NCBI GenBank assembly: GCA_934754375.1
Contig: CAKVHT010000002.1
Coordinates: 11,257 to 75,256 of the forward strand
Length of the DNA stretch: 64,000 nucleotides
Origin: an uncultured Clostridia bacterium
GTDB taxonomy: Bacteria > Bacillota > Clostridia > Christensenellales > UBA1242
Direction of reading: 5' to 3'
Part shown: positions 2,568 to 33,764 of the stretch, one piece after another
Layout of the letters: each line of letters begins with the position of its first letter
Position numbering within the stretch: position 1 is the stretch's first letter
Position numbers and translations under genes: made by a program
Notes under the pieces: generated by a model
Database searches by the model: none
Told to the model about the DNA's origin: nothing
Seen by the model: the letters and a program-made list of their open reading frames with translations, nothing else

Positions 2568-3053
2568 TTATTCTTTTTCTGCGACCGCTTGTAATGCACG
2601 TGCCAAGCCAGACACTGGTGCATTGAGGACATATACCAACTGTGCAAGAAGTTGTTCTTTGCCTGGGATAGAAGCCAAAACTTTAACAGCACTTTCATCA
2701 AGCACTTTACCATCACAGTAACCAGCTTTGATTGAAAGAGTTGTGTAGTCTTTCATCGCATTTTTGATCAAGCGAGGAGCGACTGTTTCATCGTCCATAC
2801 CAAAAGCAAAAGCAGTTGTGCCATTAAGAGCTTCGTCAAAACCAGCAATACCAAGTTGTTCGCAAGCCTTTTTGAAGAGAGTGTTTTTGATAACTTTATA
2901 AGTTACGTTGTTTTCTCTTAAAGATTTACGCAATGCTGTATCGTCGCTAACTGTGATACCACGATAGTCAACCAATACAACTGATTTGCTTGAGCTGATT
3001 AAACTTTTGATTTCCTCTACCGCATTCTTTTTTGCTTCAAGATTTGCTGACAC
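2568..3053 (-). CDS. rplJ: 50S ribosomal protein L10
   Basis: 161 aa. Motif VVLVDYRGITVSDDTALRKSLRE. GTG start preceded by AGGAGG. Sits directly upstream of rplL. Confidence 0.95.
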   Translation of the reverse strand: MSANLEAKKNAVEEIKSLISSSKSVVLVDYRGITVSDDTALRKSLRENNVTYKVIKNTLFKKACEQLGIAGFDEALNGTTAFAFGMDDETVAPRLIKNAMKDYTTLSIKAGYCDGKVLDESAVKVLASIPGKEQLLAQLVYVLNAPVSGLARALQAVAEKE

Positions 3054-3215: not shown

Positions 3216-3221
3216 GTGTTT

Positions 3222-3250
3222 AGTATAACGCAATCGACACAGATTGTCAA
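3222..3250 (-). promoter_or_regulatory. Sigma-A-type promoter of rplJ-rplL
   Basis: The minus strand reads TTGACA (3245-3250), a 17-nt spacer, then TATACT (3222-3227). Confidence 0.7.
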
Positions 3251-3361
3251 CCGCTTTTTTTAAATTTTACATTAAATTTTTGGGTTTTTATTTTTAACTG
3301 ATACTTAATTTTTTGTTTGCAACATAAATCCACTCAAAATTTAATATCAATCATAATTTTG

Positions 3362-4441
3362 TTATTTTGTATTTTCATTTTTTATGTTGAACTCACGTTC
3401 GTATTCTCCTGCAATATAATCCCAAGTCATATTGTTGTCTGCAGTTTCAGCATTAAATGTTGTAGCACTTCTGATTTTGTTGATATTTACACTATCAACC
3501 TTGACACTGTTAATCATAAAATCAGCATAGGTTGAAAACACTACTGGTGCAACATAGGATTTTTGAGTAACTCCTTCATGTCCTTTTGTTGCATCTGTAC
3601 CCAAATAGAAAACATATCCATTATGCTTCTCTATTTCATAAGACTTAAATTCACTGATTGTTTCAGCAAACGCATAATCAACCAATTTTGCCTTTATCTC
3701 CCACCCAGTACTATGTTCATTTTTATAACCTGGACTTTTTTCAAAATAGTATTTCTCAAAATTATCATCACCCATAGCATCGTATAAAGTTCTGCCAATG
3801 TCATAATAAAAGTCGTAATCTGTTGCAACACTTGATATTGACAATATTTCAGGTTGATATAATTGAGAGATGATATCATTCACGAAGTAACTTACTTTAA
3901 AGTCATTTTGTTGCAACCAGAAATAATCTTCCATATCTCTGTTAGACAATTTATATTTTAAAAAATATGTATTATTTCTTTGGTCTTTATAACCAGTTTT
4001 AACGCTAACAACCATATAAAGATTGTTTGGTTCGTCATCATAAACAAATGCTGAAGTTTTACATTCCAATCCACCATTTTTGATTGAATCAATATCAAAA
4101 CCTTGTTGTGATAAAAATGCGTAAGGGTGTGGGTCTCTTCTGTTCAAAACATAATTTGCACTTTCATTATATAATTGATATTCTTTAACTTTGAGCATTA
4201 AAGGAGAATATTCTTTTTCTTCAACTGGTTGCACAATTTCACCATGAGATGGGTCATTTGGATTTGGTTTTGTTATGTTGTTTGCACAACCAACAAATGA
4301 CACACTAATTGCGCCAGCAAGCACAAGTGAAAATATTTTTTTATAAATTTTTGAGTTACGCATTTTGTTGTTAATACGCATAGCCACCCTAGCAAGTAAA
4401 CTTTCTTGCTTTGTTTCATCAGCTTGATTTTTATGTTCCAT
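3362..4441 (-). CDS. Hypothetical lipoprotein (359 aa)
   Basis: Strong SD AAAGGAGA 4 nt before the ATG. A charged N-terminal extension is followed by KKIFSLVLAGAISVSFVGC|ANN (lipobox). No recognisable domain. Confidence 0.7.
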   Translation of the reverse strand: MEHKNQADETKQESLLARVAMRINNKMRNSKIYKKIFSLVLAGAISVSFVGCANNITKPNPNDPSHGEIVQPVEEKEYSPLMLKVKEYQLYNESANYVLNRRDPHPYAFLSQQGFDIDSIKNGGLECKTSAFVYDDEPNNLYMVVSVKTGYKDQRNNTYFLKYKLSNRDMEDYFWLQQNDFKVSYFVNDIISQLYQPEILSISSVATDYDFYYDIGRTLYDAMGDDNFEKYYFEKSPGYKNEHSTGWEIKAKLVDYAFAETISEFKSYEIEKHNGYVFYLGTDATKGHEGVTQKSYVAPVVFSTYADFMINSVKVDSVNINKIRSATTFNAETADNNMTWDYIAGEYEREFNIKNENTK

Positions 4442-4519: not shown

Positions 4520-4547
4520 ATTATACCATGAAGACGAAATTTGTCAA
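4520..4547 (-). promoter_or_regulatory. Sigma-A-type promoter of the 359-aa lipoprotein gene
   Basis: The minus strand reads TTGACA (4542-4547), a 16-nt spacer, then TGgTATAAT (extended -10, hexamer 4520-4525). Confidence 0.65.
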
Positions 4548-4611: not shown

Positions 4612-4639
4612 AAAAAAGAAAAGGAAGTTTAAAACTTCC
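4612..4639 (-). terminator. Rho-independent terminator of the giant gene
   Basis: GGAAGTT-TTA-AACTTCC hairpin (4623-4639) followed on the minus strand by TTTTCTTTTTT. It begins about 28 nt after the TAA at 4668. Confidence 0.75.
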
Positions 4640-4667: not shown

Positions 4668-7600
4668 TTATTGAATTGTGATTGAGCCACCTTCTCCATT
4701 TCTAGATTTCATAACAACTGTAACAGCTTCACTGAATTTTGTTGAGTATCCGCCATTTTGTTGCAATAGATAGAATGTTTCTCCAGTATTAAATAATTTT
4801 TCACTGTAAAACGAGAATTTTTGAGTCTCTATTAATGGATTAGAAATCAATGCGTCAACCATATCAATAAACGCATTTGAATTACCAAATGTTATGCCTG
4901 AAATTTTTCCAAACAATCCAGAATCAAACATATATCTAGTATAGAATTTTATATCACCACTTATATTACAATATTTGTTATCGTTTATTTGATGATTTTC
5001 ATCTTTAACTGTCAAGATAACTTCATGAATAGTTTCAACATCACAACCTTCTTCGGCAGATAGAGTATATTTGCTGTCAATCCTATACATCACATATTTT
5101 GTTGCATTGATTTTGCCTTCGTCGTTAAATCCTTTTGTATAGGTTCCATTAATATATTCATTGCCGCCTTTTACGTTTATGTCTATTTTAATATACCCGA
5201 TAGAATCCACCTTCAATCTGTAATAGTCACAAAAATTATATCCGTCATACTCTAGTTTCTTAAATTCGTCAATAGACATACCTTTAATTGTAGATTTGTA
5301 ATTTATATCCCCTGTCGATGTATTTACATCATAGATGTCAGCTAAAGTCATTTTAGTACCATTGTCAAATTCTATTTGATAATCTACCAAACCATCAGAG
5401 AAATAGAAAGTCTCTGTTTTTACATCAGGTATCTTCCATTTCTTGTTACCATTGGTTGTCTTACTCCTATAGTTTGAGGCATATATTTCTTGATTGAAAA
5501 CGGTCATAACTTTATTATCTGATGTCAACTCGTAACCACCTTCCCAAAGATAGTATGACACCTGATATTTTACAACACCTGGATGATTTGCATCTGTTTG
5601 ATACTCATAAGTTTCATTATCTTTTGCATTGCCTGTGAACATTGAACTATAAGGATTTTTGAAACTATAAGGGTAAATATCCATATCTATGTAACGTTTA
5701 TCGCTATAAGCGGAATTCACATCATCTAACCCATTTTGGTCATCTGCTATATAAGAAATTTCATAACACGCTTCTGGAATTTCTGTTATAGATTGTCTAT
5801 ACCTTGTTTGGTATTCAGTTGGCAAGATAATATAATTGTCACCATCGTAATAATAATTACCTGCATTGTTTTGAGTGTAAGTTCCGTCAGGATTTTGAAC
5901 ATATCTAGTTTGATAAATCAAATCCAAAACATAATACCCAGATCCGTTTTTATAGTAGTTTGCTGTTTGATCCTCAATGTACTCGACTTTTTCAAATGTC
6001 CTGATAACATAATCGACATTTATTGTTTTGCCAGTGGAGTCATAATTTTCATTATACACAAATCTAGCACGTTTACTTGGCATTTTGTTATTACCTGCGA
6101 CTGCATAATAAGCCCCTTCAAAATAATCATAACCCAAAATCAATTTTGATTTCTTTTCTGAAGATAAAGTTGATTTGCTGTAAGACAATGTTTCAGTAAC
6201 CACAGGAGCAATTGAAGAAGCATTATTTGTCAACTCTACACGATTGAGACTATATATACCATTTGAGTATTCAACTTTGTTGCCGTCATCTCTATTTGTT
6301 GCAAAACTATATGTTCCTGTTGATGGATTGTATTCGCCATAAACATAAGCATAGTTGTTGAATGTTACATAAGGCATTTCTACACCTAAATTATTCGCAT
6401 AATATGAAGATTCAATCATATTTGCCTGAATTTCAGTTGTTGTTGCTGTGAAACTATGTTTCCAATAATAACCTTCGCTATAAACACAAGTTCTTAAGAT
6501 ATCAGTTGAACTTATGTTGCTATCAGCTCCCCACTTGTCTTTTAATGTTTGAATTATTGTATCCTGTGAGGTGTCCATACTAAAGAATTCTACCGCGCCA
6601 TTAGTTTTATTGATAACCATCCAATAATTTGAGTAATAATCCAAAGGCCTTGAACTTGAATACAAATGATATGGTTGTCCATCAATAACCTTTACTTTGT
6701 CAGCAACCGCTTTTGTTTCGTTATCCTTATCCAAACTGATGTCTCGATAATACATGTTAGATAGGTATCCGACTTCACCCTCAAGGTTTTGGACAATTGT
6801 GCCTGTATTGTAATAGGTCATCATTTGTTCTTTTGCAATAACATTAACACCATAACCTATTGCGAATGTGATTAAAAGTTTCTTTATTACTGTTGTTTTA
6901 AGAAGATTTTTCAAAGCACCTTTCAAGAAAGCTTTTGCAAATTCTTTTGCCCCCATTTTTGCCCCAATTTTTGCTGTAGCTGCTAGTCCAGCGCCCGCAA
7001 CACCAGTAGTACCACCAGAAACAATAGAACCAAGCAACCCTATTACCATAGCAGCATCTGCTGCAACAAGAAGACTTTGCCAAATTGCAAGTTTTATTCG
7101 TGCAGCCTCATCTTGTTTTGTTGCCAAAATACCCTTATAGTCACTGCTTCCGAAACCATTAACCTCAAATATTGAACCAGATTCAGCCTGCTTAGACTCC
7201 TGATATTTAACTTTATACTCGAAATAAATTTCGTCATACAATTTTTTGGAACCATATTTTGGGTTCTCTTGATCTGTTATGCTTTCATCAAGATAATAGA
7301 AATTTTTAATTGTAATATAAGACTCATTATATCCCTGTTTAAATTTAGTATCCGGTTTCACAATATTGCCATTCTCATTATGGAAGATTTGTCCCCAACC
7401 AAATTTGGTATAGATTGTTGGAACATTTTCATAATCTTCATAAATAGTGTACAGAATTTGACCTTTTTCGTCCTTTGTATAGCCAGAGCCTTCTTCTGTT
7501 ACAGATTTAACAGCATTAATCTTGCTTGCGTCATAAATTGATGCAATAGAATCCCATTCTGCACCATTATTCTTTTCCATTGGAATAAATCTTTGCATTG

Positions 7601-10600
7601 ACTTAAATCCAGTGTAACTTATATGCCAACCTGGGTGTGTATAATATAATTTTCCATCTGAAGCCTTAATCTTATCGCTGTATAATGGATTGTGATCCAA
7701 ATTATTAGTATTTTGCGATGGTGAAATCTCAAATTTATCTTTGTTTACATATCTTGCAATAGCATAAATTGTAACAGTGTTGTTTGTGCTGTCAGTAACT
7801 GCTTTGTATGTAGCGCCACCGTTATCGTAGTTCTGATTTTCAATTGTGTTGATTGTAAATGCCTTGTTGTGTTTACCTTTAACTGTGATTGTTTCTCCAC
7901 TTGTTGAAGTTACTTTAAGCATACCAACAAGACCACCAACATTTGTTACTGCGTCGCCTGAGAATTTGACATTTGTTGCATCTACATTATAAGTTGTTTC
8001 ACTGCCAACGGTTGTTACACCATTCATGTTACCTTCGAGCCTACCAACCAAACCACCGATATAGTATGAATTACCTGTGAAAATTGTAATATTTTCGTTT
8101 GTCGTTAAAGCATTGATATTTTCAACCACCTTACCAAACACACCGCCAACATACATACCTGAACCTGTAGGTTGAACAGACACATTGAAGTTTGGTTTGT
8201 ATTCAAATTCAAAGTTTGATGTTTGGCTATCTGATTTAAAGCAACCAATTGCACCACCGATATTGTATGCACCACTAACTGAAGTTTCTGCATCAAGCAC
8301 TGGCAATTCAATATTTAATTTGTCACCAGAAATTACTCTATAATAACCATAATGCAAACCGACATTCACACCCAAAGGTGCATTAATTGTCACATTAATA
8401 TGGTTAGTTGAAATGCTTCGGTTATCTTCAGAGCCATACAATGCAGTTTTGGTGCTTGTTGTACCAATCAAACCACCAACACCAGATTTGATATCATTAA
8501 ATTGAACATTGCCTTTTTTAGATGCTTCATCACTCAAACTCAAATCAAGGAAATTGATTTCATTTTTTGCTGATGCTGTCACTTTTGCAAACATAAAGTT
8601 GCTAACTGTTGAAATCACATTTGAACCTTGGTTTTTAACACGTCCTTCATTAAAGCCGTAAGAATTAATGCTTGCAGTTTCGCCTTCATTCACTGTTTCA
8701 ATTTTAGCCTTCACTATGCTATCTTCAATCCTTACTGTGTTAGCTTCTGTTGAGCCAATCAAACCACCAATGCTTGTTGGAAGCACATAGTATGAATCAA
8801 GGATTTCTGTACCATCAAATCGTTCAACATTAATTAAATTGAAGAATAAAATACCTTTTACATTTGCTTTTTCGTTTGTTGCATCGCTGTTTAATACACT
8901 GTTGTTTGTGACAACCGCACCATTTGCAGTAAGTCCAACAAGACCACCAACATTTGTGTTGCCTCTGACATCAGCCAAAACATCAACACCCCTAATTTGA
9001 GCATTTTCTGCAAGATAACCAACCGCACCACCAACATTGATTGTGCCGATGATTTTGTATCCTCCAACCAAACTTGTGCCGTAGCAAATGCTATCTTCGG
9101 TTAAACTTTCATAATCAGTGATAAGTTCATATTTATTGATTGCTTCGTTGAAAGTGTAATACTTAACGTTTTCGCCAATGTAAAGATCTTTAACTGAATA
9201 ACTATTGAACCCAACAAAGCCAGTTGCATAACCAACCAAACCACCAACAGATTGATAACCTTTAATGTTTGCTTGGTTTTCACAGCCTATAACAAATGAG
9301 CCTGCACCAGACATACCTGCAATACCACCAACATTGATTGGTTTTGTGCTGATAGTTATGTCTTCTTTTTCTGTTTCCTTGCCTGTTGTAAAGGTGTTAT
9401 AAGTTAATTCGTTATCATTATTATCTCTTTCGTTATCAAACAGATCTTGAACAATGATATCTGCCTTATTGATTGCACCAACAATTCTTCCGTCTGTGTA
9501 ACCAACAATACCGCCTATGTTTTTAAACAAACCGCTTCCGTCTTTATATAGACCTCTATCAAAAGTGATTTTATTAAAGTTGATAAAGCCATTGATTTCG
9601 CAATTTGCGCTTGCTTTACCAATCAAACCGCCCCAGTTGCCACCGTTTGTGACAAGAGTTGTAGATTTGATTGTTGCAAATGAATTTTTGTCTGCACCAG
9701 TTCCATCTCCTAAACCAGACATGAAACTCCAACCATCAATTGATGTGCACTCAATTGGAGCATCAGCAAAACCAATTGCACCACCAACATTGTAACTCCC
9801 TTGCAATGTGATGTTCCTTGGTTTTGGTATACCAATTGTTCCGCCTTTATAATAACCTATCAATCCACCAATATTGAATGAACTGCCTGTAACAATCAAT
9901 GTTGGTTGGAAATATGTTAAAGCATCTTTTTCAACGGTGATTCCACCTTTATCTGTAGTTGATAAATTACCAACCAAACTGCCAAAGCCTTGTGTTGTTT
10001 CATTTACTTGTGCTGCAGTTGTTGCTTGAATGATTAATTGGCTTCTTAATTCCAATTTGCCATTGAAATTCAATTTGCCTGAGCCAGTTATTTTGCCTGC
10101 CAATAAACCAAAGAATCTATTGTCACCATTAACAAAAGCAATAACAATACTTTGATCTTCAATTGTACATTGATTGATAGTTATTGTGTTGTTTACCACA
10201 CCAACAAAACCGCCAAATTGATTTGCCATAAATGTGTCGTTTTCAAATTTTACATGGAAATTTGAAACTGCCACACCATTTGTTGATTCGCTTGCAACTT
10301 CGCCAATCAAACCACCAAATACATCATAACTTGCTGAAGTGATAAATAATGTTGTTTTACCTTTTGATTCAATTGTTCCGTTTTCAACACTACCAACCAA
10401 ACCACCTGTTGTGGTATGATCTTCGGTTGATGCAACACCATTATCAAACTCATTTGTAATATGAATTTCTTCATCATAGATTGAAATTGTGCCCGCAATC
10501 ATTTTTGATAAAACAAAGCCATAATTACCTGAATGTGTTGCAATCAATTTTGACATGCCAGAACTATATTGAGTTGTACCAATAGTGTCAACACCTTTAA

Positions 10601-13600
10601 CTGTATTTTCATCAACAAAATCGCCAATTTGGATTGAACCTGCACGCATTGTTCCAAACAAAATTGAGACATCTGTGCCAGATACTGTTAAATCACCAAC
10701 ATCAACGTTTGTAACAAGAACTGTGCCATTAACTTCAACACCAAGTGCACCTGAACCGCTCATCCTTTCAAATAAGCCTTCAAACTTGATGTTGTTGTAA
10801 ACTGCATTTTTAATATTTGTGAACAAACCATTTACTGAAAGGTTTGAAATTGAATATGATTTAACTTTATTTGCACTGTCAAGATAACCTGCATCTATTG
10901 TTCCAGTAAACCCATTTGTTGAAGCAGCAAAGCCCAATGTTTCATCATTTACACCAACTGCATACCAGTTCACTGTGTCAACTTTGTTATGTTGTTCATA
11001 GATTCCACCGTCAATCTTGCGTGTGATTTTATAATATCTGTTTGCTCCAGTGTCGTTTGCTATCACACCTTGAATTGAATTTAACACACCCAAGTGTGGC
11101 ACTTCAAACCAATCATCGGTGTTGTTCAAACCACGTCCAGTTTGACGTGAATATTGTGTTACAAATGCTTTGTTTAAACTACCCTCAATCACACTTGTGT
11201 ATTGATTGAAATCATAAATAGGATAGTTGTAGTTGTAACCAAACATTGAACCGTCAGTCAAATCTAATTTTTTGCCTGAAATTGCTGTGTGCCAATTACC
11301 ATCAAGATTTGTTGCATTCATCAAATCAAATGTTGAACTCACTGTTAAGTTGGTTTTATTCAAATCTGCTTGATCAATGCCCGCATCTGAAGGTGTTGCA
11401 AGTTTATCAATAATATTGTTGCCACCATTATTTAAGTCCACACCCACGAATGAGGAGAAATTGATCTTGTCTATATTACCTGCTGAATAACAATTATAAA
11501 TATACGCATCGGACGACACATTTTCAGCAAATGCGTAGCCATATTTACTATTATTTTTAACTGTAATTGAACCAGTAAAATAGCTTGATACGATCGTTGC
11601 ATTATTGTTGAGAGCAATTGCACCAGTTTGATTTTGTGTTGTTGTATCTGCTGAATTGAAGCAGTAAGAAATCAAACCGTTGTTATCATTAACAATCAAA
11701 CCTGTACCTTTACCATCAGCAGATGTATTTGCAACACTGTTAATTGAACCAATGATTGAACAATTAAAGATTGTGCCAAAGTTTACATTTACCAATGGTC
11801 TTGTTACATCAAAGTTTTCATATTTAATATGAATATTTGAAATTGCAGAATTACCATTTGATGACGAACTATCGCCCAAATTGTTAATATAGAACGCATT
11901 CCCAGTTTTTATAACATTGCCATTGCCAACCGCAATACCTGTAAATGTGTTTGCAATGTTAAAGTTGTCGCCAACCAAATAATACATAACTTGGTCAGAA
12001 CCGGTATAAACACGTTTAGGATTTGCCACCAAACCACTCTTATAATCATCAGTTGCATTTTCAAAAATTTCAAACTGACGCATACTTGTGCGCATGCTTG
12101 TAATATAAGGAACATTAGATGTGTTTGAAGCAGTGTTTGACCATACACCAGACTCTAACACTTTGGTTTGATAACTCATTGAGTTAATAAGTGTGCCTGC
12201 AGATAAGTTTGTGCCCAACATTGTGTCTTCTGGTTGAAGAGCCATGTCAGTTGAGTAGAACAAATCAGATGTTAAACTGTTTTTATCTGCATTTGTTTGA
12301 TAGAAGTTGCTTGTGCTAGCTTCTCCCACAAACATATTGTAATTTGAACTTTGCCCAACTTTTGTTGAATTTATAAAGCCAAACAAAGCCCCCATCTTCC
12401 TAAATGTTGTTGTGTTATTTGCTGATGGCAAAACTTGTGTGATGGTTTCGCCCTTCAAGCCGTTTGCTAGTATTGATGATAGGCTGAATGAATAACTGCC
12501 TGTTGCCAGCACAACATTTTCAGTCGAACCTGCCAAGCCACCAATATAATAGTTTACGTTGCCTTCAGCTGAAGGTGTTATTTTGCCCAAATTGATTGAG
12601 TTTGACAAAATCAAACTGCCATCAACACGTCCAACCAAACCACCGATGTAAGCCGTTTCAGTTTCTTCACTTTGAAGCTTGCCAAATTTTGAAGAAATAT
12701 CAACACTTGATACTATTTGATCTAAATTAATTTTGGTTTTGCCTGTTGATTTATAAGCATAGCCAATTGTTCCACCAACATTGGCATTGCCAACTGTTGA
12801 TATTGAACCAGTGAACAAACATTGCTCAATATAAACATTGTTGACTGTTTCAACAAGTGCAATGCCTGCAGAAGCTGTTGTTGAACTTGCTGAACTTACT
12901 GTTGAAATGATATTTGAACTTACATCGCAATTTACAATTTTTCTGCCTGTATCTTCAGCACTTAACAAATATTTGCCAACAAGCCCTGCAAGATATAGGT
13001 TTGCATTTTTATTGCTTATGCCTGATTGTTCACTAACTTTGATAGTATGGAATGAAACATTGTCTTCAACATTACAATCTTCAACCACACCAATCATACC
13101 AGAAGCATACATTGAAACACTTACTGAATTTGTGAAATTGTTTAATACGATATTGAGATCAATATTTTTGCTTACAACTGAACTTGTTAAACTGCCAATG
13201 CTATTGCCTGAAACAGCTGTCATTTTAAGTGCACCAGCAAGCAAACCGACATCAAGTTGTTTGTTGCCACTTACTTTGAAATTAAACGATGTGTTTTGCA
13301 ACGTACCAACTGAACTGTTGATAATGCTCATTGTGTTTTCAATGTCTTCAATATCAGTATTACCATAACCAACCAGACCGCCGACAAAGTTCTCTGTTTT
13401 TGTGCTGTTTGTTAAATCTATATCAGCACTTACTTGTCCAGAGAATGATGAATTTAAGATGTTTGTGCCCAAAGCAGTTGTTATCAAGCCTGCAAATCCA
13501 GTGATTGAACTATATTGAACAGACTCATCTCTGCCTGCATGTGCAAACAATTCAACAGCATCTGTTTCTGTGCGGTTAATTCTGCCAACAGTAACCATAA

Positions 13601-16600
13601 TTGCACTGATTTTTGATTTTTCATCGTTGCCACTAAAACCTGCAAAGTTTTTAATTTTAACTTTGTTACCTTCGCCACCAACACCATATTTTTTCCAAGA
13701 AAATTCTATATTCCTAAATGTTGCATTGCTTGTTGCCCTGAACAAGCCCGCATCGGCATTATTTGGTGCTTTAACATTGAGGTTATACACAATAGGTGTT
13801 GAACCATCAGATTTTTCGCCAATCAATACACCAGAGAACTCAAAGTCAAACACAAAGTTTTCTCCACCTTTGTAGTTTGACATATTTACATCATCAGTGA
13901 TTTTGAAACTTCCTGTTGGATTGTTTTTGATTTTTTCAAAGTCTTGAGCATCTTTGATGATTTCATAGTTTTCATCGCGTTGGTCTGTTAAAAGTGGGAA
14001 ATATCTGCTGTGAGTATCCAAATTCCAATATTTTGTATCCCAAATTGAGAAGATTGAATTGTATGTTGAAAGTTGCACTTCTGGCACTTCCAAATTATAC
14101 AAATTTCTCATGCTTTTGATTGTTAAACCAGCAATATTTGAGTTGGCAACAATCAAATCACTGTAAGCAATTTCGCCAACATAAACTTGTGAAATTACAT
14201 GATTTGCAACTCTATCTTCGCCAATAAAGTTGTTTAATTTTACGTCTATTGTAATATTTTGATTTTCAAGATTTTGTTTGAATGTTTTATAAGCTTCATT
14301 TTCAAGCAAAATTGTTGAGAATGTGTAGTTTTGACTGTTGCCAGTTTTTGCACCCAAGTTTGTGTAAACCTGACCGAATGTTGCACTGCTTGCATCTTCA
14401 GCAATGCCAATCAAACCGCCAATTGTTTTGACAGTTTCCATATTGCCTTCAAAATTGATGAAAGGCACAGCATAGTTGAAGTTGTTATTTGAAAGTACAT
14501 CTACACCAATCAAACCACCTATGTTTTTGCCAGCATAGAAACTTGCTTTGCTATAACATGAGAAGATTGAACTGCCAACACTGATACCAATCAAACCTCC
14601 ACCATAGGTGTAAGATTCAATCAATCCAGCATTGCCAATATTTTCTTTATCCAAAGGTTTTGACATGTCAAGCACGTATTTTGCAAGAGTGCTGTCATAT
14701 TTAAATTGAGCTTCGTCAGTATCTAAAGCACTGACTTTAGATGCCTCCATAGTTGCACCAATGCTTGCACCATACAAACCGCCAGCAGAATATTGCCCGT
14801 CAATGCGGTTAGATGAGCCAACATTGAATGATACACGCACCGATTTTACGGATTTGCCAACGTAACCGGCAACACCACCAGCATAGTCTGCGGTTATTTT
14901 TAAATTATCGTTGACATCTACTGCGTTATCGTTGATGTAAATGTATGACAAGTTATATCCTTCGCCACCGCTTGAATATGAACGAGTTGTAACATCAATT
15001 ACACCTGCAATTCCACCAGCATAGGACACTGTTTGAGCATAACTATTATTTGCGCTGTTTGCATTTTTAGTTGATGAATAAAGTTCAGTTGTGCCAGACA
15101 AAATTGTTGACACACTCAAATTTGAAGAAATACCATAAATCAAACTTTGACCGTCAATCAAGCCTGCCAAGCCACCAACCATATTTGCACCCTGAATTGT
15201 TGTGTTAACACCATCAAGGCTAATGTTGATTATGACAGAATCTGTTATTTTACCTGCCAAGCCACCAGAATATATTGAGTTTGCAGTACTAAAATTGCCT
15301 GATGAGAAATGCAAATTCAAGTTTTTGATATAAGCACGATTGATTTTTGCAAACAAACCAACCATTTCTTCTTTATCTTCGCCAACATCAAGATAGATAT
15401 TGTTGATTGCCATACCGTTGCCGTCCAAGCTTGAGTAAGTTGTGTCGTTGGTATTGTTTTTGCTACCCAAAGTGAATTGTCTGCGTGTTGCAATTGCTGC
15501 TTTGTCGCTTGCAAAATCAATATCAGCAATCAATCTAACATATCCTGCAAAATTGTTTGATGTTCCATAGTTTGTGAACACATCATTAAACTCTTGAACC
15601 GAACTTATAATTTCAGGATTGTTTTTACTGCCAAGGCTGAATTTTGTTGCATAAGTATATTTACTTGTGCTATCTGCGTTGTCAGTATTGTTGCTTTCAT
15701 ATCTAAATGAATATGCAACATTATTTGCAATTGTAAGTTCTGGCAATTTAACAGCATTGCCACGATTATCATAGAATGACCAAATGCCTTGGTCACGGTC
15801 GTTTTTGCTGTTACTCAACACAAATACAAAATTAACTAAATTGTTTGTGTCTGCAAAATTTGTTGCATTCAAACCTGTTGCGGTTGGTTTTCCGTCAGTT
15901 TCTGCAACAACAAATTGTTGTTTATTTGTGTCTTTATACCAATAGCAATTTTCCAATTCCCCATTTGAAAGTGAGCCAGTTGTGTCTGCCCCAACAAACG
16001 GTTGTTCAGGTGTGATTTGCAAAGTTGTATCGCTGTTTGCATTTGCAAATGTGCAGGCTGAATAACATTGACTGACTTTTGCGCCTGAATTGTTGCGGAA
16101 CACAAAACCTGCCATAAACGCAGATTTTGAAACAAGTTCAATATTTGCAAAACTGTTATTGATATTTGCACCAGACATATTGTCGTAAACAAATCCGGCG
16201 ATATTACCATCTGCATGTGCTTCAATTTTTGCACCTGTTGAGAATGGATTTTCGTTTGTTATTGTTGTTTCAATGCCTTTTACATAACTATACGATATTT
16301 TGCCAGAGTTTTCAGCAACAAAACCTGCAAGTTTTGAATCACTGTTTGTTGAATATGTGTACAAACTTGTGTTTGCAACATACGAACTTGATATGGCACT
16401 GTTGCTTGAGTTGATGCCAACAAAACCACCTGTTATAGATTTAAACCCTTGACCTTGATTTAATGTGCGGTTGCCCAACACAAAGTTTAGAGGTTTAAAG
16501 TACTCTGTGTAACTTGTTTGAGAGTTGTCATTTGCAATAATTTTGGTAAATTCACTTGTGCCAACACGGCTGTTTGTGATTGTGCCGTTATTCACACCAA

Positions 16601-19600
16601 CCAAACCACCAAATGTAATGCTTGTTTCAGCATTATTGTTTATCAAGATATTAACAACTTTTGTGCTTGAACTGCTTGCGTTTATCACATCGCAGTTGTA
16701 AATCAAGCCATTGTTTACCGCTGCCAAACCACCAAACACCACATTATTTAAGTTTTCATAAGCAAGCACCAATTGTCCATTTTGACTTGCATTGAATTGT
16801 GAATAATCCACAACCAAATTGTAAAGCAATGTATTTTCACTTACTGTTGCAAACAATCCGTAATATCCAGCATTTTCAGAAGCATCGTTTGACACAACAA
16901 AGTTTTTGATAATAATCTTTTTGTTGTTGCCATCCAAACTTGCAATAGCGGTTGAAATTGGTTTTGCAATTTCAACAACAATATCATTTGTAAGCACATA
17001 GTTTTGCCCTTCACCTAATATGCAATTGCCGTCAGCATCAAACATTTGGTCTGCCTGGCTGATTGCAAAAGCATCTTGGCGAGTTGTTGCTGTGTAGAAA
17101 TTCATATCAAAATTGATTGTCAAAACATGTGGCAACATTGTTGTGTCTTGACTGCCAAACACTAGTTTGCAAACCCCAGTTGTTTCGTCATAAGCATAAT
17201 TATAGTTTATTTTGAATTGCACTGAAGTTTTAAATTTGCCTTTTGCTTTTATGCGCAAATTTGTAATGGCTTCACTGCCTGAACCATAGTTTGTTGTGAA
17301 CACTTCAAAATAATCATTTTCAACATCAAAACTGCTTGTTATGCCAGAGTCATCAACTTTATATGTAAACATCGACATCAGTTTTTGGAACACTTTTGTT
17401 TTAAGTTGTTCTTCTGTCAGTGTTTGATTTTCCGCTGATGCCAAAATTTGATTTTTGATATTTGATAAAATGACGTTATAAATTTCATTTGAGAAATCTA
17501 TATTGTTATCATTTGTTGCAAAATCAAATGTCAAATCACGTGCTTGATTGATTGCCAAATTTAATGTTGAGCCAAAATCAAATGATGTGTTATCTTTGTT
17601 CAAGATATAATCAGTTGGGAAGAAATTGATTGAACTATCTTCTGTTTTGATTTCCGTGTTAGAAATCAAGCTCATACCAACCACAACTTTGAATGGTTTT
17701 GAAAGGCTGTTTCTCAATGCAAGTTGCAATCTCATTGAATATGAACCGTCTGAATTCGCTTTAAGTTCACTATATTTATCCAACCATTGATAATCAACAT
17801 CAAGGCCAAGAGAATTGCCTTTCAAATCAGTGATATTTACCACTGGGTTTGCATTAAATTGGTAGCCGTAAATTTTCAATGTTACGATATTATTTGTTGT
17901 GTTTTGTTGAATCAAATATCCTTGAGTATCTTCGCCATTAACCTTTGCTGTGATTTTGTAATCTTCATCATAAGACAAATCCACACCAGGCAAATAATCT
18001 GTTACCAAAGATTTTGTTTTAACAATATGAGTATCGTCAGCATTTGTAACATCTAATGTTAAGCGGATTTCATCAGCCAAACCACTAAACTTTTTATCCA
18101 ACACAACATGAACATATATTGTGCCATCAAATGTGTAACTTACCCCATCAGTTGTTGCACTGGCAAGTTCTAAATAAACTCCCATGCCGTCTTCAGTTTG
18201 TGCGCAACTTGGGCTGATGCTGATATACTTGCCAAGCCCAGTGTGATAAACAATTTGTTCAAATCTAATTTTTACTTTTTCGTTAAGGCTTGGGACATAA
18301 AGTTCACTGCTCTTCAAAGAAACCTGTTTTATATGCGCATAACTTGGTTGCATACGGACTGTCAACACCCCACCATTTCCACCTGGAGTAATGTTGGCTG
18401 TTTCAACTTGACTTGAAGTGATTAAGTAAGTGTAATTGCCCATTGCTTCAGCAGATGATGCTGCATAGTTGTTTATTACGACACTGCTTGAAAGTGTTGA
18501 AGGCCTTATTGTCAATTGAACAGTTGTTCCGCCGTCAATTGATGGGTTTGTTTTTGCGTATATTTTTATTGCAAAACTGATTTCACTTGTCAAATATCTG
18601 GTGTTGTAACTGTTTTTAAGTTGCATTGCGATGTTGTATGTGTAAGTTTTGTTAGTTTCATTAAAGTTGTTGAACACTTCAATATCAAACAATTCTGGTA
18701 TTGTTGTTTTGCCTGATTGTTTAAGCAATCTTGAATATTCATCAGTGCCGTCAATCACACTGAAATTCATAATCAAACTGTCATGGTTTTCTTCATCAAA
18801 TTCAACAATATTGTTTGTTGAAACCGGCTTTACAAATGCGTCAACTTCTGGATTTTCACTGTCAACATAACCAGTTGTCAAAGTTGCAGTAACAACATAA
18901 GATTCACTTGATTCACCTTCCAAATGATCAGTGCTAAATTCAAGAGCGGTTGCCGTTTCACTGATATTTACATTTATTTGTTTTGTTGCCAATGTTAAAT
19001 ATTGATCAACCCCGTCTTGTTGAGGATAAATTTCTGTGCCAAAGAATTTTGTTAAATTGAATTTGGTTGTGAATATTATTGTTTCAGTTTTTGTTCCACT
19101 GATTTCTGTATCTGTGCTGTTCAAAACAAATCTGTTAAACAAATTTGGATTTTTGCTGATTGTCAATACTGATGATTCAGCATCTTGAATTGTTGCCAAG
19201 ATTTCCACAAATTCACTTATGTTATCAACATCAAAAAGTGACTTATAGTTTGTTGAATCGTTTTGTCTTGTGTTGATTGTGTCAAGGTCAATTTCCAAGT
19301 TTTGCACACCTTTGTAAGTTGAAAGCTGATAGGTTGTGTTGCCTGTACCAACTGCTTGAAGGTTGTCCGCTTCAAGCACAATGTCGCTATACCAATTTTG
19401 TGTGTAAATCAAGAAATAGTCACAAGCATCTGGATTGAACAAAGAATATGCTTTAATCAAAATATAATCTTGATTTGATGTGCCTTTAAAATAAATTTCG
19501 TTGTTATTTACAATAGACGCATAATCTGCACCTTTAATTATCTTATACACAATTGCACCAATGGTGTTTAGGCTATTTGGCACTTTTGTCAAATTAACCA

Positions 19601-22600
19601 AATCATCAATTATATGTGTATTTAAATTAATATTATTAAGAGGATTATTGATATCATTATAGTAATTTACTATTGCAGTTTCTGTTATGCCATGTTTAAT
19701 GATATTGTTAAGTTCATCTTTTTTGTCTGTATCTTCGTTCTTTGTGTAATCGCCAACATAAAGAGAATTGATATCCTTGATTGTTTGTTGATTTAATATT
19801 GTTGTGATATCAGTTGGGATTAATGTAAAGTTGTCAACAAGATAAGGCAAATAGAAAACATATCCATTTACGGCAAGAGTGTTAAATGACTGTTCAACCT
19901 TCCACATCTCGCCAGAAACACCTGTTTCAAGTTGGTTTTGTTCGGTTGTTGAAAGCCTGTCAAAGTCAACAGGATTATCGTTCACAAACAATGTGCTGTC
20001 GTCATAAACAGCAGTATAAACACTGCCAGTTGTTGCAATACGATTGCCAGAAAATCTTCCAATAAAATAACAATTTTCAGCCGTTGAGTTTGAAATCAAA
20101 TAACTTGTCACACTGCTATCAGCAGCTATATTTGCATTTATGTAAGATGTTTCAAGTTGCACTGAACTTGCACTTTCACTCACGCACACCAAACCATAAA
20201 CTTGTTTTGCTGTCAAACTGCTAAATGTTTTGTCTTTTACATAATTTTCAACACTGCTTAAACTGATTGTTGCAGAATTTGCATTTGCAACCAAACCTGC
20301 AACCACACCCAAGTTGTTTGAAATAATGCCGTATGCTTTGTTTTCGTCCAATTTTATGCCAGCATCAATGCCGTCTTCAAGTTTAAAAGACATAAATTTG
20401 ACACTGGTTAAAGTTGTTGCTGTTGCTTCGCCAACTGCACCAGCCAATTTTAAGTTTTGACTGCTTGCTGTCAAATTAACACCTAACATAACAATATCTA
20501 CAATTGTTGTGCTTGCTGATTTACCAACCAAACCTGACAAATATCCTGTTGCTTTCAAGCCATTAACATTGATTTGCCCCATGGTTACAAAGCCTTTAAT
20601 CACAGCATTTGAAGCGGATTCGCCAGCAATGCCACCTATCAAGACATTATTTTCAACCCTATTAACCAATGTAACATCAAGATCTGCATTTGTAACAGCA
20701 ATATCCATACCCACATTGTAAGCAAGTTTTTCTAAGTCTGATGCTTGACGATAACTGCCAACAATTGAGCCTGTCAATCTGCCTGCAACAGCACCAAGAT
20801 ACAAATATTTGTTTGTTGCGTTAAAGGCTGTGTAAACTGCACCTTTTGTTGTAACTTTTGAATTTGCAAGGTTAAAATTGTTTGCCATTTCGCCAGCCAC
20901 ACCGCCAAGATACACATCTGTGGAAATACTATTGCGACTGAATGTTAAACCAGAAAAGTCGATTTCAAATTGAACATTACTGATTTTTACATTTGATTCG
21001 ATAACACCAGCCAAACCACCAATGTACAATGATTTACCACTGTCGGTTGAGGTTGGTTTTAAATAATCTTCAAACTGAATATTCAAGTTCAGGTCTGTGA
21101 TAGACGCATTGCCAGTCAATTTTGTGAACAAGCCATAATAAACGTTATCCGTTGCAGTTGAAGACCTGCTGATTGTGACTGTTAAATTACGTTTTGTTTC
21201 AACCACACCACCGACATCATTAAATTGCACATATTTACCTGATATTGAACCAGAAAAACTATCAAATGTTGTGTGATTTGTAACAACAATATCTTTTGTT
21301 AAAACATAGTGAGCATTTAAATTGTTTGCAATATTTCTAAAATCATCAGCTGATGAAATTTTATATCTTGCTTTTGTTGAGCCGTCAGTGATTGTTATAA
21401 ACACATCTCTAAAGTTGGTATATTTATTTGTTGATTCATCATAAGAATCAAGCGCAACCAAGCGCAATTTAAACATACCTCCACCCAATGATTTGTTTGC
21501 ACCAATTGAAACCAAACCTGTGAGTTTGGTGATTGTTATATTCAATCTATTTTCTGCTTTGCTCAATTCAACAGCGGTATATTGTTTATTGCCATCTAAA
21601 ATTGGATTACCGTCTTCATCTTGCAAGATTTCATACAAAATATAATCTAAATCATCGTATTTTGTTGCAACCAATTGATTGTAAACTACTGTTGCATTGA
21701 AATTTGATGTTGCCACACCACCATCTGCCACATTTAAGAATGACATATTGATGTTGATTGTATTGTTTTCGCTTGTAAGAGCTTCACCACTTAAAGCGAT
21801 ATCATCTGATTGCACATAACTGCCAAAGTTGATTGTAATGGCTTTGGAAACTGCCAACTCTGTGCCAAAACTTACTGCTGTAAGATTGATTGTTACAAAT
21901 TGTTGAGATGTTTCAGGTTTCTTGATAAGTTTTACTGTCAAATTGCCTGTCAATGCAGAAAGATAAATTCTGTTACCATGTTCATCGACCGCGGTGCCAT
22001 TATTGTCTAACAAGATTTCATCAGAACCCAAATATATCTTTATTGAACGATAATCACCTGTAACAGACAATTTTAATTTGTTGATATCTTCAACTATTTC
22101 TTCATTGCCATTTGCACCAAATTTAACCGATTGTGAAGGTGTTGCAATGAAACTTTTTGAATCAAATTTTATTGTAGAACTAGCAGCAGATTCATAATAT
22201 CTATTGATATAAACAATTTCATTGCTACTGCCAGATGCAAAGTTCATATCAATGCTACTTATGCTATTATAAACAGCAATTTCAAACTCTTTGGTTACAC
22301 TTGTTGTTGAAATTACACCATTTTCTTGAACATAATAAATGATTGTTGCTGTGAAATGAGTTGTTTTACTGCCCTGCACACCCCAAATTTGATATTTATT
22401 GACACTGCCAGTTTTGCCAAGTGCAAGATAATCAACTGCTGATGCGGAAAAATCTGTACTATCGTCTTTGCCTGACCTTACAAGTTCTACATTTGCAATT
22501 GAGAATTGGTTAAATAAGCCAGAAACCATTTGACCAAAATGCAATTCGCTCTTTAAATTGTAGTTATTTACGATTGCATATCTATCCAACGATGTTTCGC

Positions 22601-24750: not shown

Positions 24751-24780
24751 ATTATATAAAATTATATAGGGATAAGTCAA
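24751..24780 (-). promoter_or_regulatory. Sigma-A-type promoter of the giant gene
   Basis: The minus strand reads TTGACT (24775-24780), an 18-nt spacer, then TATAAT (24751-24756). This lies about 45 nt upstream of the ATG. Confidence 0.55.
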
Positions 24781-28280: not shown

Positions 28281-28292
28281 AATCTCCCCTTT

Positions 28293-33146: not shown

Positions 33147-33764
33147 TTAATATACCAGCCTTTTTGCATTGCGCATTTCAATTTCGTTTTGCGCAACATA
33201 AGTGAAGCACCACAAACCTAAAATGATTGTGATAAACAACATTTTATGTTCGGCTATAAAATCCACATAACTGCCATAATTTGCAATGTTGGTTACAACT
33301 TTGCCTTCTATTTGATTTGCTGATACATATTGATACAATGCTGATGCTTCTGTCCTGACTTGTCCCAAAGACTTATCTTTAATTGCGTCAGCTTCTTGTT
33401 GCCATGTCCAGCCATCTTCTGCTGAACCATATTGGAAACCTACATTGTCGCCATGACAGATATACACATCATCTTTGATTGCAATAAGGCGGTGAACTGT
33501 TGGCAAGTTACCTGAACCAGTTTGGTCAAATTTAAGCACATCGCCAACTTTATACTCTTTTGCAGAGTGCACAACCACCATGTCCCCAACTTTGATTTCT
33601 GGCTCCATACTGCCAGTTAAAACTTTGTATGGCCTAAAGTGAAAGGCATATACAAATATAAGGCAAATTGCCAAAATAATCACAATACCAATTGCAAGAT
33701 TATATATAAGTTGTTTTGTAAATTTAAATGCTTTATTTTCTAAAATCTGATCGTTGTAATTCAT
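33147..33764 (-). CDS. sipW: Signal peptidase I, SipW (ER/archaeal) type
   Basis: 205 aa. N-terminal TM, Ser box TGSMEPEIKVGD, His box PTVHRLIA (a Ser/His rather than Ser/Lys enzyme), HGDN, and an extra C-terminal TM MLFITIILGLWCFTYVA as in SipW. Its SD overlaps the stop of the 3,012-aa gene. Confidence 0.88.
   Translation of the reverse strand: MNYNDQILENKAFKFTKQLIYNLAIGIVIILAICLIFVYAFHFRPYKVLTGSMEPEIKVGDMVVVHSAKEYKVGDVLKFDQTGSGNLPTVHRLIAIKDDVYICHGDNVGFQYGSAEDGWTWQQEADAIKDKSLGQVRTEASALYQYVSANQIEGKVVTNIANYGSYVDFIAEHKMLFITIILGLWCFTYVAQNEIEMRNAKRLVY

Follow-up and report, generated by a model that had tools for sequence, protein, structure and literature searches.

A giant gene on this contig raises the question of why a surface protein should carry a hydrophobic, strongly basic module about 800 residues short of its end. 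The window (the whole stretch of DNA analysed here, 64,000 nucleotides) comes from Candidatus Onthoplasma, family UBA1242, a group with genomes of <1 Mb that is widespread across animal guts (PMC12306168; PMC13155120). [quoted passage not shown] The gene occupies about 2.2-2.7% of a 0.75-0.92 Mb genome (genome sizes from PMC12306168). It adjoins rplJ, the gene and its synteny are conserved within the lineage, and a full-length orthologue (P0002) of 6,624 aa is 63% identical to the window protein. A promoter-like site upstream agrees with the consensus at 11/12 positions (consensus scan; a pattern match only), and the terminator-like hairpin that follows the gene is also seen after the giant gene in L002. 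The genomic surroundings are those of a spore-former-type Firmicute, with SpoIIE, SpoVG, and DnaD/DnaI-like genes close by.

Table 1. Features of the giant gene, its product and its flanks (nucleotide positions are those of the window; aa, residues of the giant protein)
Feature	Position	Strand	Residues	Basis or remark
Giant gene	4668..24704	(-)	6,678 aa	ORF list and translation
Promoter-like site TTGACT-18-TATAAT	24751..24780	(-)		~47 nt upstream of start codon
Lipoprotein signal peptide	24633..24704	(-)	aa 1-24	sequence MKKRFLNMLMVLIVVLSCGFLSAC, followed by G
Pre-hairpin juxtamembrane region	7092..7607	(-)	about aa 5700-5871	Tyr and variability profiles
TM1	7020..7091	(-)	aa 5872-5895	LAIWQSLLVAADAAMVIGLLGSIV; KD19 2.11
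Gly/Ala/Thr-rich linker	6972..7019	(-)	aa 5896-5911	SGGTTGVAGAGLAATA; sequence
Poly-Lys tetrad repeat	6879..6971	(-)	aa 5912-5942	Lys at i, i+4..., 7 repeats
TM2 / internal export signal, putative	6834..6878	(-)	aa 5943-5957	LLITFAIGYGVNVIA; hydropathy
C-terminal domain	4671..6833	(-)	aa 5958-6678, 721 aa (718 from aa 5961)	composition
Strain-variable block	5145..5624	(-)	aa 6361-6520	variability profile
Second variable block	4785..4904	(-)	aa 6601-6640	variability profile
Terminator-like hairpin	4623..4639	(-)		29 nt past stop codon; consensus scan
Neighbouring small lipoprotein gene	3362..4441	(-)	359 aa	conserved

The N-terminus is readily classified. Its lipobox, L-S-A-C24, matches the pattern [LVI]-[ASTG]-[GA]-C, P0002 has LTAC at the equivalent position, and the signal peptide is the most hydrophobic segment in the giant protein. 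The protein fits the class of bacterial lipoproteins (Lgt/LspA substrates), and its lipidation is predicted. Beyond this, it appears to be a surface lipoprotein devoid of recognisable domains, whose function we infer. The whole protein has no match in Pfam, NCBIfam, or PDB, and relaxing the Pfam search to E <= 10 adds only two chance-level hits. Along its length there is no Pfam match to the FIVAR, GA, or DUF1542 repeat families, nor at E <= 10 to GLUG or Peptidase_M26_N, despite 29 GG[LIVF]xG motifs in the ectodomain. BLAST detects no internal repeats, and the sole similarity of the ectodomain is a weak one to a neighbouring 3,012-aa lipoprotein (E 3e-4). A regex search finds [LIV]PxTG absent from the protein, with a sole LPxT[GASN] match at aa 596; its only VENN string lies at aa 1350.

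The module itself was first described in an earlier note as three elements in a row, and the strings quoted there are exact, at aa 5872-5911 (nt 6972-7091), 5912-5942, and 5943-5957. A Kyte-Doolittle threshold of 1.6 over 19 aa is exceeded only by the signal peptide, TM1, and TM2 (1.61). Past the signal peptide, these two neighbouring segments are the sole hydrophobic ones among 6,678 aa, and the protein's most basic stretch lies between them. TM1 measures 23-24 aa in five sequences. Its Trp5875 and Asp5883 are invariant between the window protein and P0002, and TM1 of L003 also includes an Asp. Two low-confidence AF2 models agree that SGGTTG, the first part of the linker, breaks the helix, but one makes the remainder coil and the other helix. 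The 40-residue stretch of TM1 and linker holds 7 Gly and 10 Ala, and the "glycine zipper" proposed for it has to be withdrawn: GxxxGxxxG is absent in all four orthologues checked, and GxxxG occurs at most once in each. TM2 is 13-15 aa long in all sequences, its 15-mer ranks third in hydrophobicity within the protein, and its core is preceded by KK or KR and resembles that of a signal peptide. It includes Asn5954, ends in V-I-A directly before KEQ, and is 100% identical in L002 and L004; in P0002 it is hydrophobic yet only 20% identical.

The Lys repeat between them has a net charge of +8, the highest in the giant protein. Its period-4 register is found in four orthologues, the pattern is unique within the six-frame translation of the window, and its start is encoded by a 12-nt tandem repeat at 6945-6974. 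The stretch had been called strongly amphipathic, a description that does not hold up. Its hydrophobic moment at 100 degrees (0.40) is not above that of shuffles (mean 0.36, p about 0.3), and the moment instead peaks at 85-90 degrees (p < 0.01) because Lys recurs exactly every four residues. The Ala/Lys tract of L003 scored 17 bits against a type III secretion translocon model with a curated cut-off of 540, a low-complexity match that we rejected.

For a protein this long, the single features of the module are within chance: 60% of shuffles contain a KD19 window of at least 2.11, and 23% contain a 31-aa window of +8. This speaks for an alternative with no membrane element, in which the hydrophobic segments would be helices packed into the core of a soluble extracellular domain and the Lys tract would be a surface linker binding a polyanion such as teichoic acid. 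The positive approximate insertion energies (see below) also lend this reading something. We nevertheless regard it as very improbable. The joint layout of hydrophobic segment, most basic window, and hydrophobic segment occurs in 0/5000 shuffles, and hydrophobic runs are avoided elsewhere in the protein, with 2 segments observed where shuffles contain 7.2. The hairpin module is not a chance feature. In addition, a 40-residue stretch with one charge and an uncharged 15-residue stretch are conserved in character and not in sequence.

This conservation extends to every orthologue that covers the module (4/4: L002, L004, P0002, and L003), none of which lacks the segment, and the layout is retained in L003 at 25% identity. 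Through the module, the alignment of the window protein with P0002 has no gap in the 145 aa taken from the window protein and shows 39% identity, with the Trp and Asp of TM1, six Lys in register, and the Asn of TM2 invariant. The physicochemical character of the module is conserved despite low sequence identity. Sequence and profile searches of the hairpin against Pfam, NCBIfam, PHROGs, and PDB returned nothing above noise.

The charge distribution is also shared. In five sequences, the loop contains 9-13 Lys/Arg (net +8 to +11), while the outer flanks of the hairpin carry 0 to +2 on the N-terminal side and -2 to 0 on the C-terminal side, a pattern that fits the positive-inside rule in all five. 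From the segments, their charge pattern and conservation, and the homology and rapid divergence of the C-terminal domain described below, we infer a topology, a Sec mechanism, and any role in attachment. In the reading we favour, and to which we give an even chance, the module would form a hairpin in the producer's own membrane, tethering both ends of the protein and placing the C-terminal domain outside. Sec would export the giant protein as a lipoprotein, Cys24 would be lipidated, and about 5,850 residues would be threaded to the outside before TM1 and the strongly basic loop stop translocation. The 47-aa loop, comprising the Gly/Ala linker and seven K-x-x-x repeats, would remain cytoplasmic, probably lying against anionic lipid head groups. 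Translocation would then resume at the short TM2, which follows KK and would serve as an N-in/C-out export signal for the 721-aa Tyr-rich domain. The outcome would be a membrane tether at both ends, with a strain-variable extracytoplasmic C-terminal domain beside the membrane.

Several observations weigh against this reading. TM2 is short for a membrane span. Approximate insertion energies, taken as a position-independent Hessa-type sum, are positive for both segments: TM1 comes to +2.7, owing to Asp5883, and a TM2-centred 19-mer to +5.6. AF2 yields no confident model or helix packing: pLDDT is 32 for the hairpin plus C-terminal domain (four-sequence alignment) and 42 for the hairpin alone, and the models are therefore too poor for a fold search. 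A membrane-proximal site under the cell wall would be odd for the part of the protein that varies most among strains, and a simple positive-inside loop needs no exact period-4 Lys register.

The marginal hydropathy and shortness of TM2 are compatible with TM1 crossing alone, which would leave everything from the Lys stretch onward, TM2 and the 721-aa domain included, in the cytoplasm. Intracellular domains beyond a C-terminal TM anchor have precedents among giant proteins (bioRxiv 10.1101/2023.11.21.568195), and such a topology here would be similar to the tail of Ebh or to the C-terminal regions predicted to lie inside the cell in the Omnitrophota Dockerin-type giants. We consider it highly improbable, however, as TM2 is hydrophobic in all five sequences, including P0002, where identity is about 20%, and the C-terminal flank is neutral to acidic. 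The C-terminal domain bears on the same choice. Its Tyr content is 11.1% versus 5.1% upstream, and this Tyr-rich composition runs on from the exported side: Tyr already reaches 10% in the pre-hairpin region, whose final ~30 residues differ among strains. The Tyr-rich character starts about 170 aa before the hairpin, which suggests that both flanks lie on the same side. An extracellular-versus-cytoplasmic log-likelihood score built from the window's own proteins gives the domain +0.073 bits per residue, compared with a range of -0.035 to -0.19 for cytoplasmic proteins and of +0.10 to +0.21 for extracellular proteins; omitting Tyr leaves it near neutral at +0.018. The composition of the domain thus leans extracellular, and a strain-level divergence hotspot with variable blocks would be unusual for a cytoplasmic domain.

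The earlier note had described some 718 Tyr-rich residues with no recognisable motif, and both parts of that description are borne out. The domain is predicted to be mostly beta and has no 15-mer with hydrophobicity above 0.82. Sequence and profile searches against Pfam, NCBIfam, PDB, and PHROG found no match, to wall-binding domains or any other family. An exhaustive HMMER search recovered only four matches among 1.84 billion representative proteins. Word-indexed homology searches with the C-terminal module, the domain profile, and an ectodomain piece returned no matches; these nulls are uninformative because they missed relatives found by the exhaustive search. No paralogue or repeat of the domain was detected within the domain itself, the ectodomain, or the six-frame window. 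Three other readings were rejected: an outer-membrane beta-barrel or autotransporter (C-termini lacking an aromatic terminal residue; Firmicute context), RHS/YD repeats suggested by "Y..TRY" strings (no Pfam support), and independent translation of the domain from Met5917 (just a weak GGGG 5 nt upstream).

The domain evolves quickly. Its dN is 0.187 versus 0-0.05 in neighbouring genes, and its C-terminal third shares 71% identity with L007, compared with 94-100% for neighbouring genes. Its dS is raised too, at 0.35-0.61 versus 0.02-0.35 in the genes nearby, with diversifying selection and imported alleles as candidate causes. At three evolutionary distances, no part of the protein evolves faster than the C-terminal ~1,000 aa. 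Within the domain, the block at aa 6361-6520 falls to a mean identity to close strains of 0.44-0.76 per 40-aa window. With a dN/dS of 0.21-0.31, the domain is both a strain-level divergence hotspot and under purifying selection, and 55 columns, mostly Tyr, Gly, Asp, and Pro, are invariant across sequences at 25-85% identity. Such divergence with discrete variable blocks is typical of exposed surface regions.

The earlier note had raised an analogy with polymorphic toxins and the prospect of a C-terminal domain swapped between strains, neither of which is supported by comparison with the relatives. The domain aligns end to end in L002, L004, P0002, L003, P0004, and P0001, and identity declines gradually, without a sharp junction. 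Judged by these alignments, it is homologous in all relatives and is therefore not a swapped toxin cassette. The gene downstream encodes a conserved lipoprotein at three loci, on either strand, with its own promoter after the terminator (at 4520-4547 in the window, a perfect consensus match); L003 (E 3e-32) and L005 (E 6e-19) have homologues of it beside the giant gene, in both cases on the opposite strand. On these features, it is not a variable immunity gene. The other proposal of the earlier note, that a lipid anchor and a distal hairpin tether both ends and re-export the C-terminal domain, is favoured by charge, conservation, composition, Tyr profile, and variability, short of being established.

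A variant with the same topology would have TM2 act as an internal signal peptide, cut by signal peptidase I between V-I-A and KEQ. The Tyr-rich domain would then be released from the membrane; it might be free, or associate non-covalently with the pre-hairpin region, itself Tyr-rich. Such an arrangement could be left over from a fusion that joined a giant lipoprotein, anchored at its C-terminus, to a secreted protein downstream. TM2 has the proportions of a signal peptide (basic n-region, 13-15 aa core, small residue at -1), and release would explain the surface exposure of the strain-variable domain. Sites compatible with the (-3,-1) rule are present in all sequences, with VIA before K in the window protein, L002, and L004, LQA before Q in P0002, and SAG before T in L003. 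The rule is very loose, however, and the L003 site is not conserved in sequence (YSA, with Tyr at -3). The reading frame is moreover unbroken in 5/5 sequences, and no convincing internal ribosome-binding site was found. On this balance we think cleavage unlikely.

The hairpin could alternatively be destined for another cell's membrane. A lipid-held but wholly secreted protein would insert its hairpin and poly-Lys stretch into the anionic membrane of a partner, whose surface the variable domain would recognise. Colicins and the diphtheria T domain, toxins that insert into membranes, carry hydrophobic Gly/Ala-rich hairpins beside basic helices. The conserved Asp of TM1 and the marginal TM2 weaken the predicted stop-transfer strength, and rapid evolution of the C-terminal ~1,000 aa would suit contact with a partner, as would the <1 Mb genomes, missing transporters, and proposed partner dependence of UBA1242 (PMC12306168). 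Against this, a charge of +8 behind a hydrophobic stretch is the classic make-up of a stop-transfer signal, and unarrested passage through SecYEG is therefore unlikely. The protein has no homology to pore-forming or translocon families, amphipathic helices that would shield the hairpin in a soluble form do not surround it, and the Lys repeat shows no amphipathicity with the period of a helix. Insertion into a partner cell is accordingly a distinctly unlikely reading. A bolder version, which we rate as improbable, casts the C-terminal ~1,000 residues as the partner-contact tether or "harpoon" of an obligately partner-dependent, genome-reduced Firmicute, in which the hairpin and the period-4 poly-Lys segment would clamp the anionic partner membrane or insert into it and the hypervariable domain confer strain-specific recognition; if true, this would be previously undescribed and could underlie metabolite scavenging.

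The locus is notable in that a single gene takes 2-3% of a reduced genome, matches no known family, and encodes an unusual two-anchor layout. If the favoured topology, with the hairpin in the producer's own membrane, is true, the protein would clearly exemplify how both ends of a giant bacterial surface protein can be pinned while a domain that varies among strains is re-exported, and it would be a concrete candidate for Onthoplasma attachment machinery. The conserved period-4 Lys loop and the polar residues within both hydrophobic segments are specific features that could be mutated. The practical value of these observations is that of a lead and not of an established mechanism.

Comparison with known systems reveals partial likenesses. 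Polymorphic toxins (CdiA, Rhs/YD, LXG, MafB) similarly combine a very long N-terminal filament with a distinct, faster-diverging C-terminal region, but the same homologous C-terminal domain is found in every relative here, with no sharp junction, and it has no Pfam or NCBIfam match to toxin, pre-toxin, or RHS domains (E <= 10 or 1). A hydrophobic Gly/Ala-rich stretch of ~40 residues beside a basic segment recalls membrane-inserting toxins, as colicin pore domains, the diphtheria T domain, and the TcdA/TcdB delivery region all have such hairpins beside basic helices. Pfam, NCBIfam, and PDB searches found no homology to pore-forming colicin, diphtheria T, or clostridial toxin delivery domains, however; unlike those toxins, the giant protein has no amphipathic helix bundle around the hairpin, and its charge fits a cis positive-inside hairpin. 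LPXTG-type sorting signals share the principle of a hydrophobic stretch followed by a basic cluster that arrests export, but here no such motif precedes the element, 720 residues separate it from the C-terminus, and it is succeeded by another hydrophobic segment and a large domain.

Closer parallels are found among giant surface proteins. The gliding proteins Gli349 and Gli521 of Mycoplasma mobile likewise belong to a genome-reduced bacterium, with a TM anchor that is N-terminal in Gli349 and C-terminal in Gli521 (PMC7052211). Each has one anchor, in contrast to the lipobox and hairpin found here, and neither has a post-TM domain or similarity to the giant protein. [quoted passage not shown] The Onthoplasma protein belongs to another phylum and shares no sequence similarity with them; the family was compared by description, and no Pfam match to SecA-like, dockerin, or discoidin domains was found. 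The two also differ in that an outside location is favoured here for the post-hairpin region.

The layout can finally be set beside that of Ebh, which has one TM and is not known to have a large re-exported domain. Ebh is a giant surface protein with a membrane anchor near its C-terminus (PMC4856396). In both Ebh of Staphylococcus aureus and Embp of S. epidermidis the anchor is a TM in the C-terminal region and not an LPXTG signal, and truncations lacking the TM lose anchoring (PMC4856396; PMC5031765). Ebh has an ordinary secretion signal where the giant protein has a lipobox, and no Pfam match to the Ebh repeat families was detected. Common to Ebh, Embp, and the giant protein is a very large exported ectodomain. 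The hydropathy and charge of the giant protein fit a membrane anchor near the C-terminus, which would be built here, unlike the plain Ebh-type layout, as a two-segment hairpin followed by 721 aa.

The giant gene encodes a protein that begins with the lipoprotein signal MKKRFLNMLMVLIVVLSCGFLSAC24, and inspection of this N-terminal sequence shows a lipobox. With a promoter-like site before it and a terminator hairpin after it, the gene looks monocistronic. The three sequence strings quoted in an earlier note each lie exactly at their place in the product, and the Tyr-rich C-terminal region described there was confirmed. Kyte-Doolittle hydrophobicity over 19 aa is 2.11 for TM1 and 1.61 for TM2, the sole hydrophobic segments besides the signal peptide. 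TM2 is the third-ranked 15-mer in the whole protein, no 15-mer of the C-terminal domain exceeds 0.82, and the Lys stretch is the highest-charge 31-aa window (+8; runner-up +5).

Features of the giant gene, its 3' module and the adjoining small lipoprotein gene (window nucleotides unless a related locus is named)
Feature	Amino acids	Nucleotides	Strand	Remark
Giant ORF		4668..24704	-	6,678 aa; ORF list and translation
TM1 and linker	5872-5911	6972-7091	-
Lys-rich loop	5912-5942	6879-6971	-
TM2	5943-5957	6834-6878	-
C-terminal domain		4671-6833	-	721 residues; 11.1% Tyr vs 5.1% upstream
Promoter-like site			-	47 nt upstream of giant gene; pattern scan
Terminator hairpin			-	just 3' of giant gene stop codon; pattern scan
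Variable block, close strains	5841-5920			pre-TM1 flank, TM1, linker
Variable block, close strains	6361-6520			within C-terminal domain
Variable block, close strains	6601-6640			within C-terminal domain
Small lipoprotein, window		3362-4441	-
Small lipoprotein, L003		12465-13448	-
Small lipoprotein, L005		1990-3012	-
Small lipoprotein, L007		1255-2337	+

A hydrophobicity as high as that of TM1 arises in 60% of shuffled giant proteins and a +8 window in 23%, so neither is beyond chance alone. Their joint arrangement does exceed chance: the most basic window flanked by hydrophobic segments, all inside ~100 aa, appeared in 0 of 5000 shuffles, and the real protein has two hydrophobic segments vs a shuffled mean of 7.2. 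Conservation is the stronger argument for a real module. The layout is kept in every relative covering the region, namely loci L002 and L004 (~85% identical to the window), the more distant L003 (25%) and the full-length orthologue P0002 (6,624 aa; 38% in the module region), and no homologue lacking the hairpin was found among them. The module noticed in the earlier note is genuine and conserved. Within the window's 145-aa segment the alignment to P0002 is gapless, with Trp5875, Asp5883, six lysines in register and Asn5954 invariant despite identities of only 28% in TM1 and 20% in TM2.

Two labels attached to this region did not survive. The GxxxGxxxG of a glycine zipper was sought in all orthologues and is absent from every one, and the Lys stretch is not the strongly amphipathic helix it was taken for, its moment at 100 degrees being no better than that of shuffles. 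Instead, exactly every fourth residue is a lysine, seven times in succession, in 4/4 orthologues (moment peak 85-90 degrees), a pattern found nowhere else in a six-frame translation of the window. The opening 2.5 Lys tetrads coincide with a 12-nt tandem repeat (window 6945-6974; 2.5 copies, 94% match, encoding AKIGAKMGAK). With an L003 loop longer by 7 aa, the tetrad array may grow and shrink via slippage.

Sequence searches of Pfam, NCBIfam, PHROGs and the PDB matched no part of the giant protein, and the C-terminal module drew no match in profile searches either, in keeping with the remark that the C-terminal domain holds no recognisable motif. An exhaustive HMMER scan of the last 839 aa against 1.84 billion representative proteins returned four, all unnamed orthologues or orthologue fragments. 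Judged by its alignments, the C-terminal domain is nonetheless a genuine domain: 55 columns, chiefly Tyr, Gly, Asp, Pro, Asn and Arg, stay invariant between sequences that share 25-85% identity, and dN/dS is 0.21-0.31.

Identity to P0002 is 70-84% over aa 1-3750 and then declines gradually, reaching 31-42% in the C-terminal domain; L002 and L004 (95-97% to 81-87%) and L003 (45-48% to 20-29%) give a like gradient. Since none of these comparisons contains a sharp junction or a replacement by an unrelated domain, a polymorphic-toxin cassette is ruled out, and the suggested toxin analogy finds no support. Against L004, the C-terminal domain has a dS of 0.35, the ectodomain one of 0.15 and the downstream gene one of 0.20; in the comparison with strain L007, identity over the final 321 aa is 71% (dN 0.187, dS 0.61) vs 94-100% (dN 0-0.033) for L10, L7/L12, RecD2, MscL and ComF. 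These comparisons mark the 3' end of the gene as a divergence hotspot. Conservation among close strains is 89-99% in aa 5921-6360, which take in the Lys repeat, TM2 and the initial 400 aa of the C-terminal domain, and likewise in the final 38 aa. Over window 4671-5624, dS against L004, L002 and L007 is 0.35-0.61, vs 0.12-0.15 in the ectodomain and 0.02-0.35 in most flanking genes. The excess suggests older or imported alleles, and relaxed selection alone seems a less apt explanation than recombination or long-maintained alleles.

The anatomy, charge pattern, conservation and evolutionary pattern of the module are observed; its topology and export pathway we infer. Five sequences agree in their charges: 9-13 Lys/Arg and a net +8 to +11 in the loop between TM1 and TM2, but a net charge of 0 to +2 over the 20 residues preceding TM1 and of -2 to 0 over the 22 that follow TM2. 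By the positive-inside rule, under which basic loops stay cytoplasmic, such a pattern would have the loop inside the cell and its two flanks on the exterior. A composition score (log-likelihood in bits per residue, trained on the window's own cytoplasmic and exported proteins) gives the C-terminal domain +0.073, vs -0.035 to -0.19 for cytoplasmic and +0.10 to +0.21 for exported proteins, falling to only +0.018 without Tyr; the Tyr-rich character begins already ~170 aa ahead of the hairpin, in the certainly exported part. It is improbable that TM1 alone spans the membrane and leaves the C-terminal domain cytoplasmic, an arrangement with a precedent in Omnitrophota giants, given this composition, the hypervariability and the conserved hydrophobicity of TM2.

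A double tether, with TM1 as stop-transfer segment, a cytoplasmic loop and a re-exporting TM2, is the likeliest mechanism, and we hold it with about even confidence. Sec would export the lipoprotein, Cys24 would be lipidated, and ~5,850 residues would pass outward until TM1 plus the +8 loop halted transfer; the Lys loop would remain at the cytoplasmic face while TM2 resumed export of the C-terminal domain, leaving both ends tethered and a strain-variable domain outside beside the membrane. The lipid anchor plus distal hairpin first offered by the earlier note is thus the best-supported reading, though unproven, and it sits poorly with the protein's most variable region lying close to the membrane, an odd place. 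A re-exporting role would fit the signal-peptide proportions of TM2 (KK or KR n-region, 13-15 aa hydrophobic core, small end residue). That TM2 is cleaved after VIA|KEQ, setting the C-terminal domain free, is rated unlikely: each sequence offers a compatible site, yet the (-3,-1) rule itself is loose. A Hessa-type insertion sum (crude and position-independent) is positive for TM1 and TM2, mainly via Asp5883, and AF2 models give helices at low confidence only; both count against the proposed topology, yet that the module is no membrane element whatsoever strikes us as very improbable.

The identical contig is found among Logan assemblies, from run ERR7745787. A GTDB scan found the closest relatives in MAGs of Candidatus Onthoplasma, placed in Christensenellaceae by NCBI and in family UBA1242 by GTDB. 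UBA1242 genomes measure ~0.75-0.92 Mb. Missing from them are the standard uptake transporters for sugars, amino acids and peptides and most of biosynthesis; these bacteria unexpectedly retain sporulation genes and have been proposed to need partner organisms (PMC12306168; also PMC13155120). At such sizes the giant gene takes up ~2.2-2.7% of the genome. Such a way of life, an Asp inside TM1 and the rapid evolution of the C-terminal end would all suit a module that is secreted and then inserts into a partner cell membrane, a reading we consider doubtful, slightly more so than cleavage, since the charges resemble a stop-transfer signal and searches gave no homology to pore formers. The window also encodes SpoIIE, DnaD/DnaI-like genes, TilS and an L10 leader. 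SpoIIE (N-terminal and phosphatase domains; window 55399-57690, -) and SpoVG (L001, the window's own locus, 20688-21038) in a lineage with <1 Mb genomes agree with the retention of sporulation genes (PMC12306168).

The giant gene is chromosomal and syntenic, followed in the window, L005 and L007 by a small lipoprotein gene and rplJ-rplL-comF-like-recD2-mscL. The L10 leader (Rfam RF00557, 54.5 bits; window 3077-3215, -) upstream of rplJ (2568..3053), itself ordinary, confirms this core chromosomal context. The small lipoprotein (327-360 aa; no match in a Pfam search) is always the giant gene's 3' neighbour, in the same orientation in the window and L007 and convergently in L003 and L005. A perfect promoter, TTGACA-16-TG-TATAAT, precedes it at window 4520-4547, and it evolves faster than its housekeeping neighbours (89% vs 94-100% identity against L007). 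Just past the giant gene of L003, from a more distant Onthoplasma MAG, lies a 2,077-aa protein with a single N-terminal TM (13689-19922, +), for which BLAST against the window (E <= 1e-3) gave no similarity.

The ectodomain (window 7092-21257) contains 29 GG[LIVF]xG motifs, clustered at aa 1229-1357, 2699-2759, 3147-3429, 3775-4055 and 4767-5590, that are reminiscent of GLUG-type beta-helix rungs; a search for Pfam GLUG found no match. Three of these clusters show the ectodomain's sole similarity, a weak one (E 3e-4 to 7e-3), to the C-terminal end of a further giant lipoprotein (33773..42811, -; 3,012 aa, lipobox FAGC). Directly downstream of the latter are an ER/archaeal-type (SipW-class) signal peptidase (33147..33764, -; TIGR02228, 53.1 bits vs a cut-off of 51.85) and three unannotated proteins. 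Past the hydrophobic core their N-termini read A-Y/A/W-F-T/S (VVYAAFS, VVYAYFTA, TGAWFT), which we take to resemble the TasA/camelysin SipW-dependent signal, and window 27501-42811 (-) may be a surface-fibre operon. Two mechanical ORF calls here (28293-30128 and 30055-30714, -) share 74 nt, and the 611-aa ORF, whose TM begins at aa 31, has a long N-terminal extension that suggests a true start further downstream.

Although any function for it is putative, the giant protein is a promising starting point for work on the cell surface of a gut lineage that is unstudied and has reduced genomes. It failed the defining tests of an LPXTG protein and of a pore-forming toxin domain, sequence and profile searches for the latter being negative. 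In working it is likest to the C-terminal membrane anchors of the giant surface proteins Ebh, Gli521 and the Omnitrophota Dockerin-type giants, but it belongs to none of these families, since every domain-level test failed. It combines an unusual, predicted lipid-plus-hairpin double anchor with a C-terminal domain predicted to be re-exported and matching no database entry, and with a conserved period-4 lysine loop.
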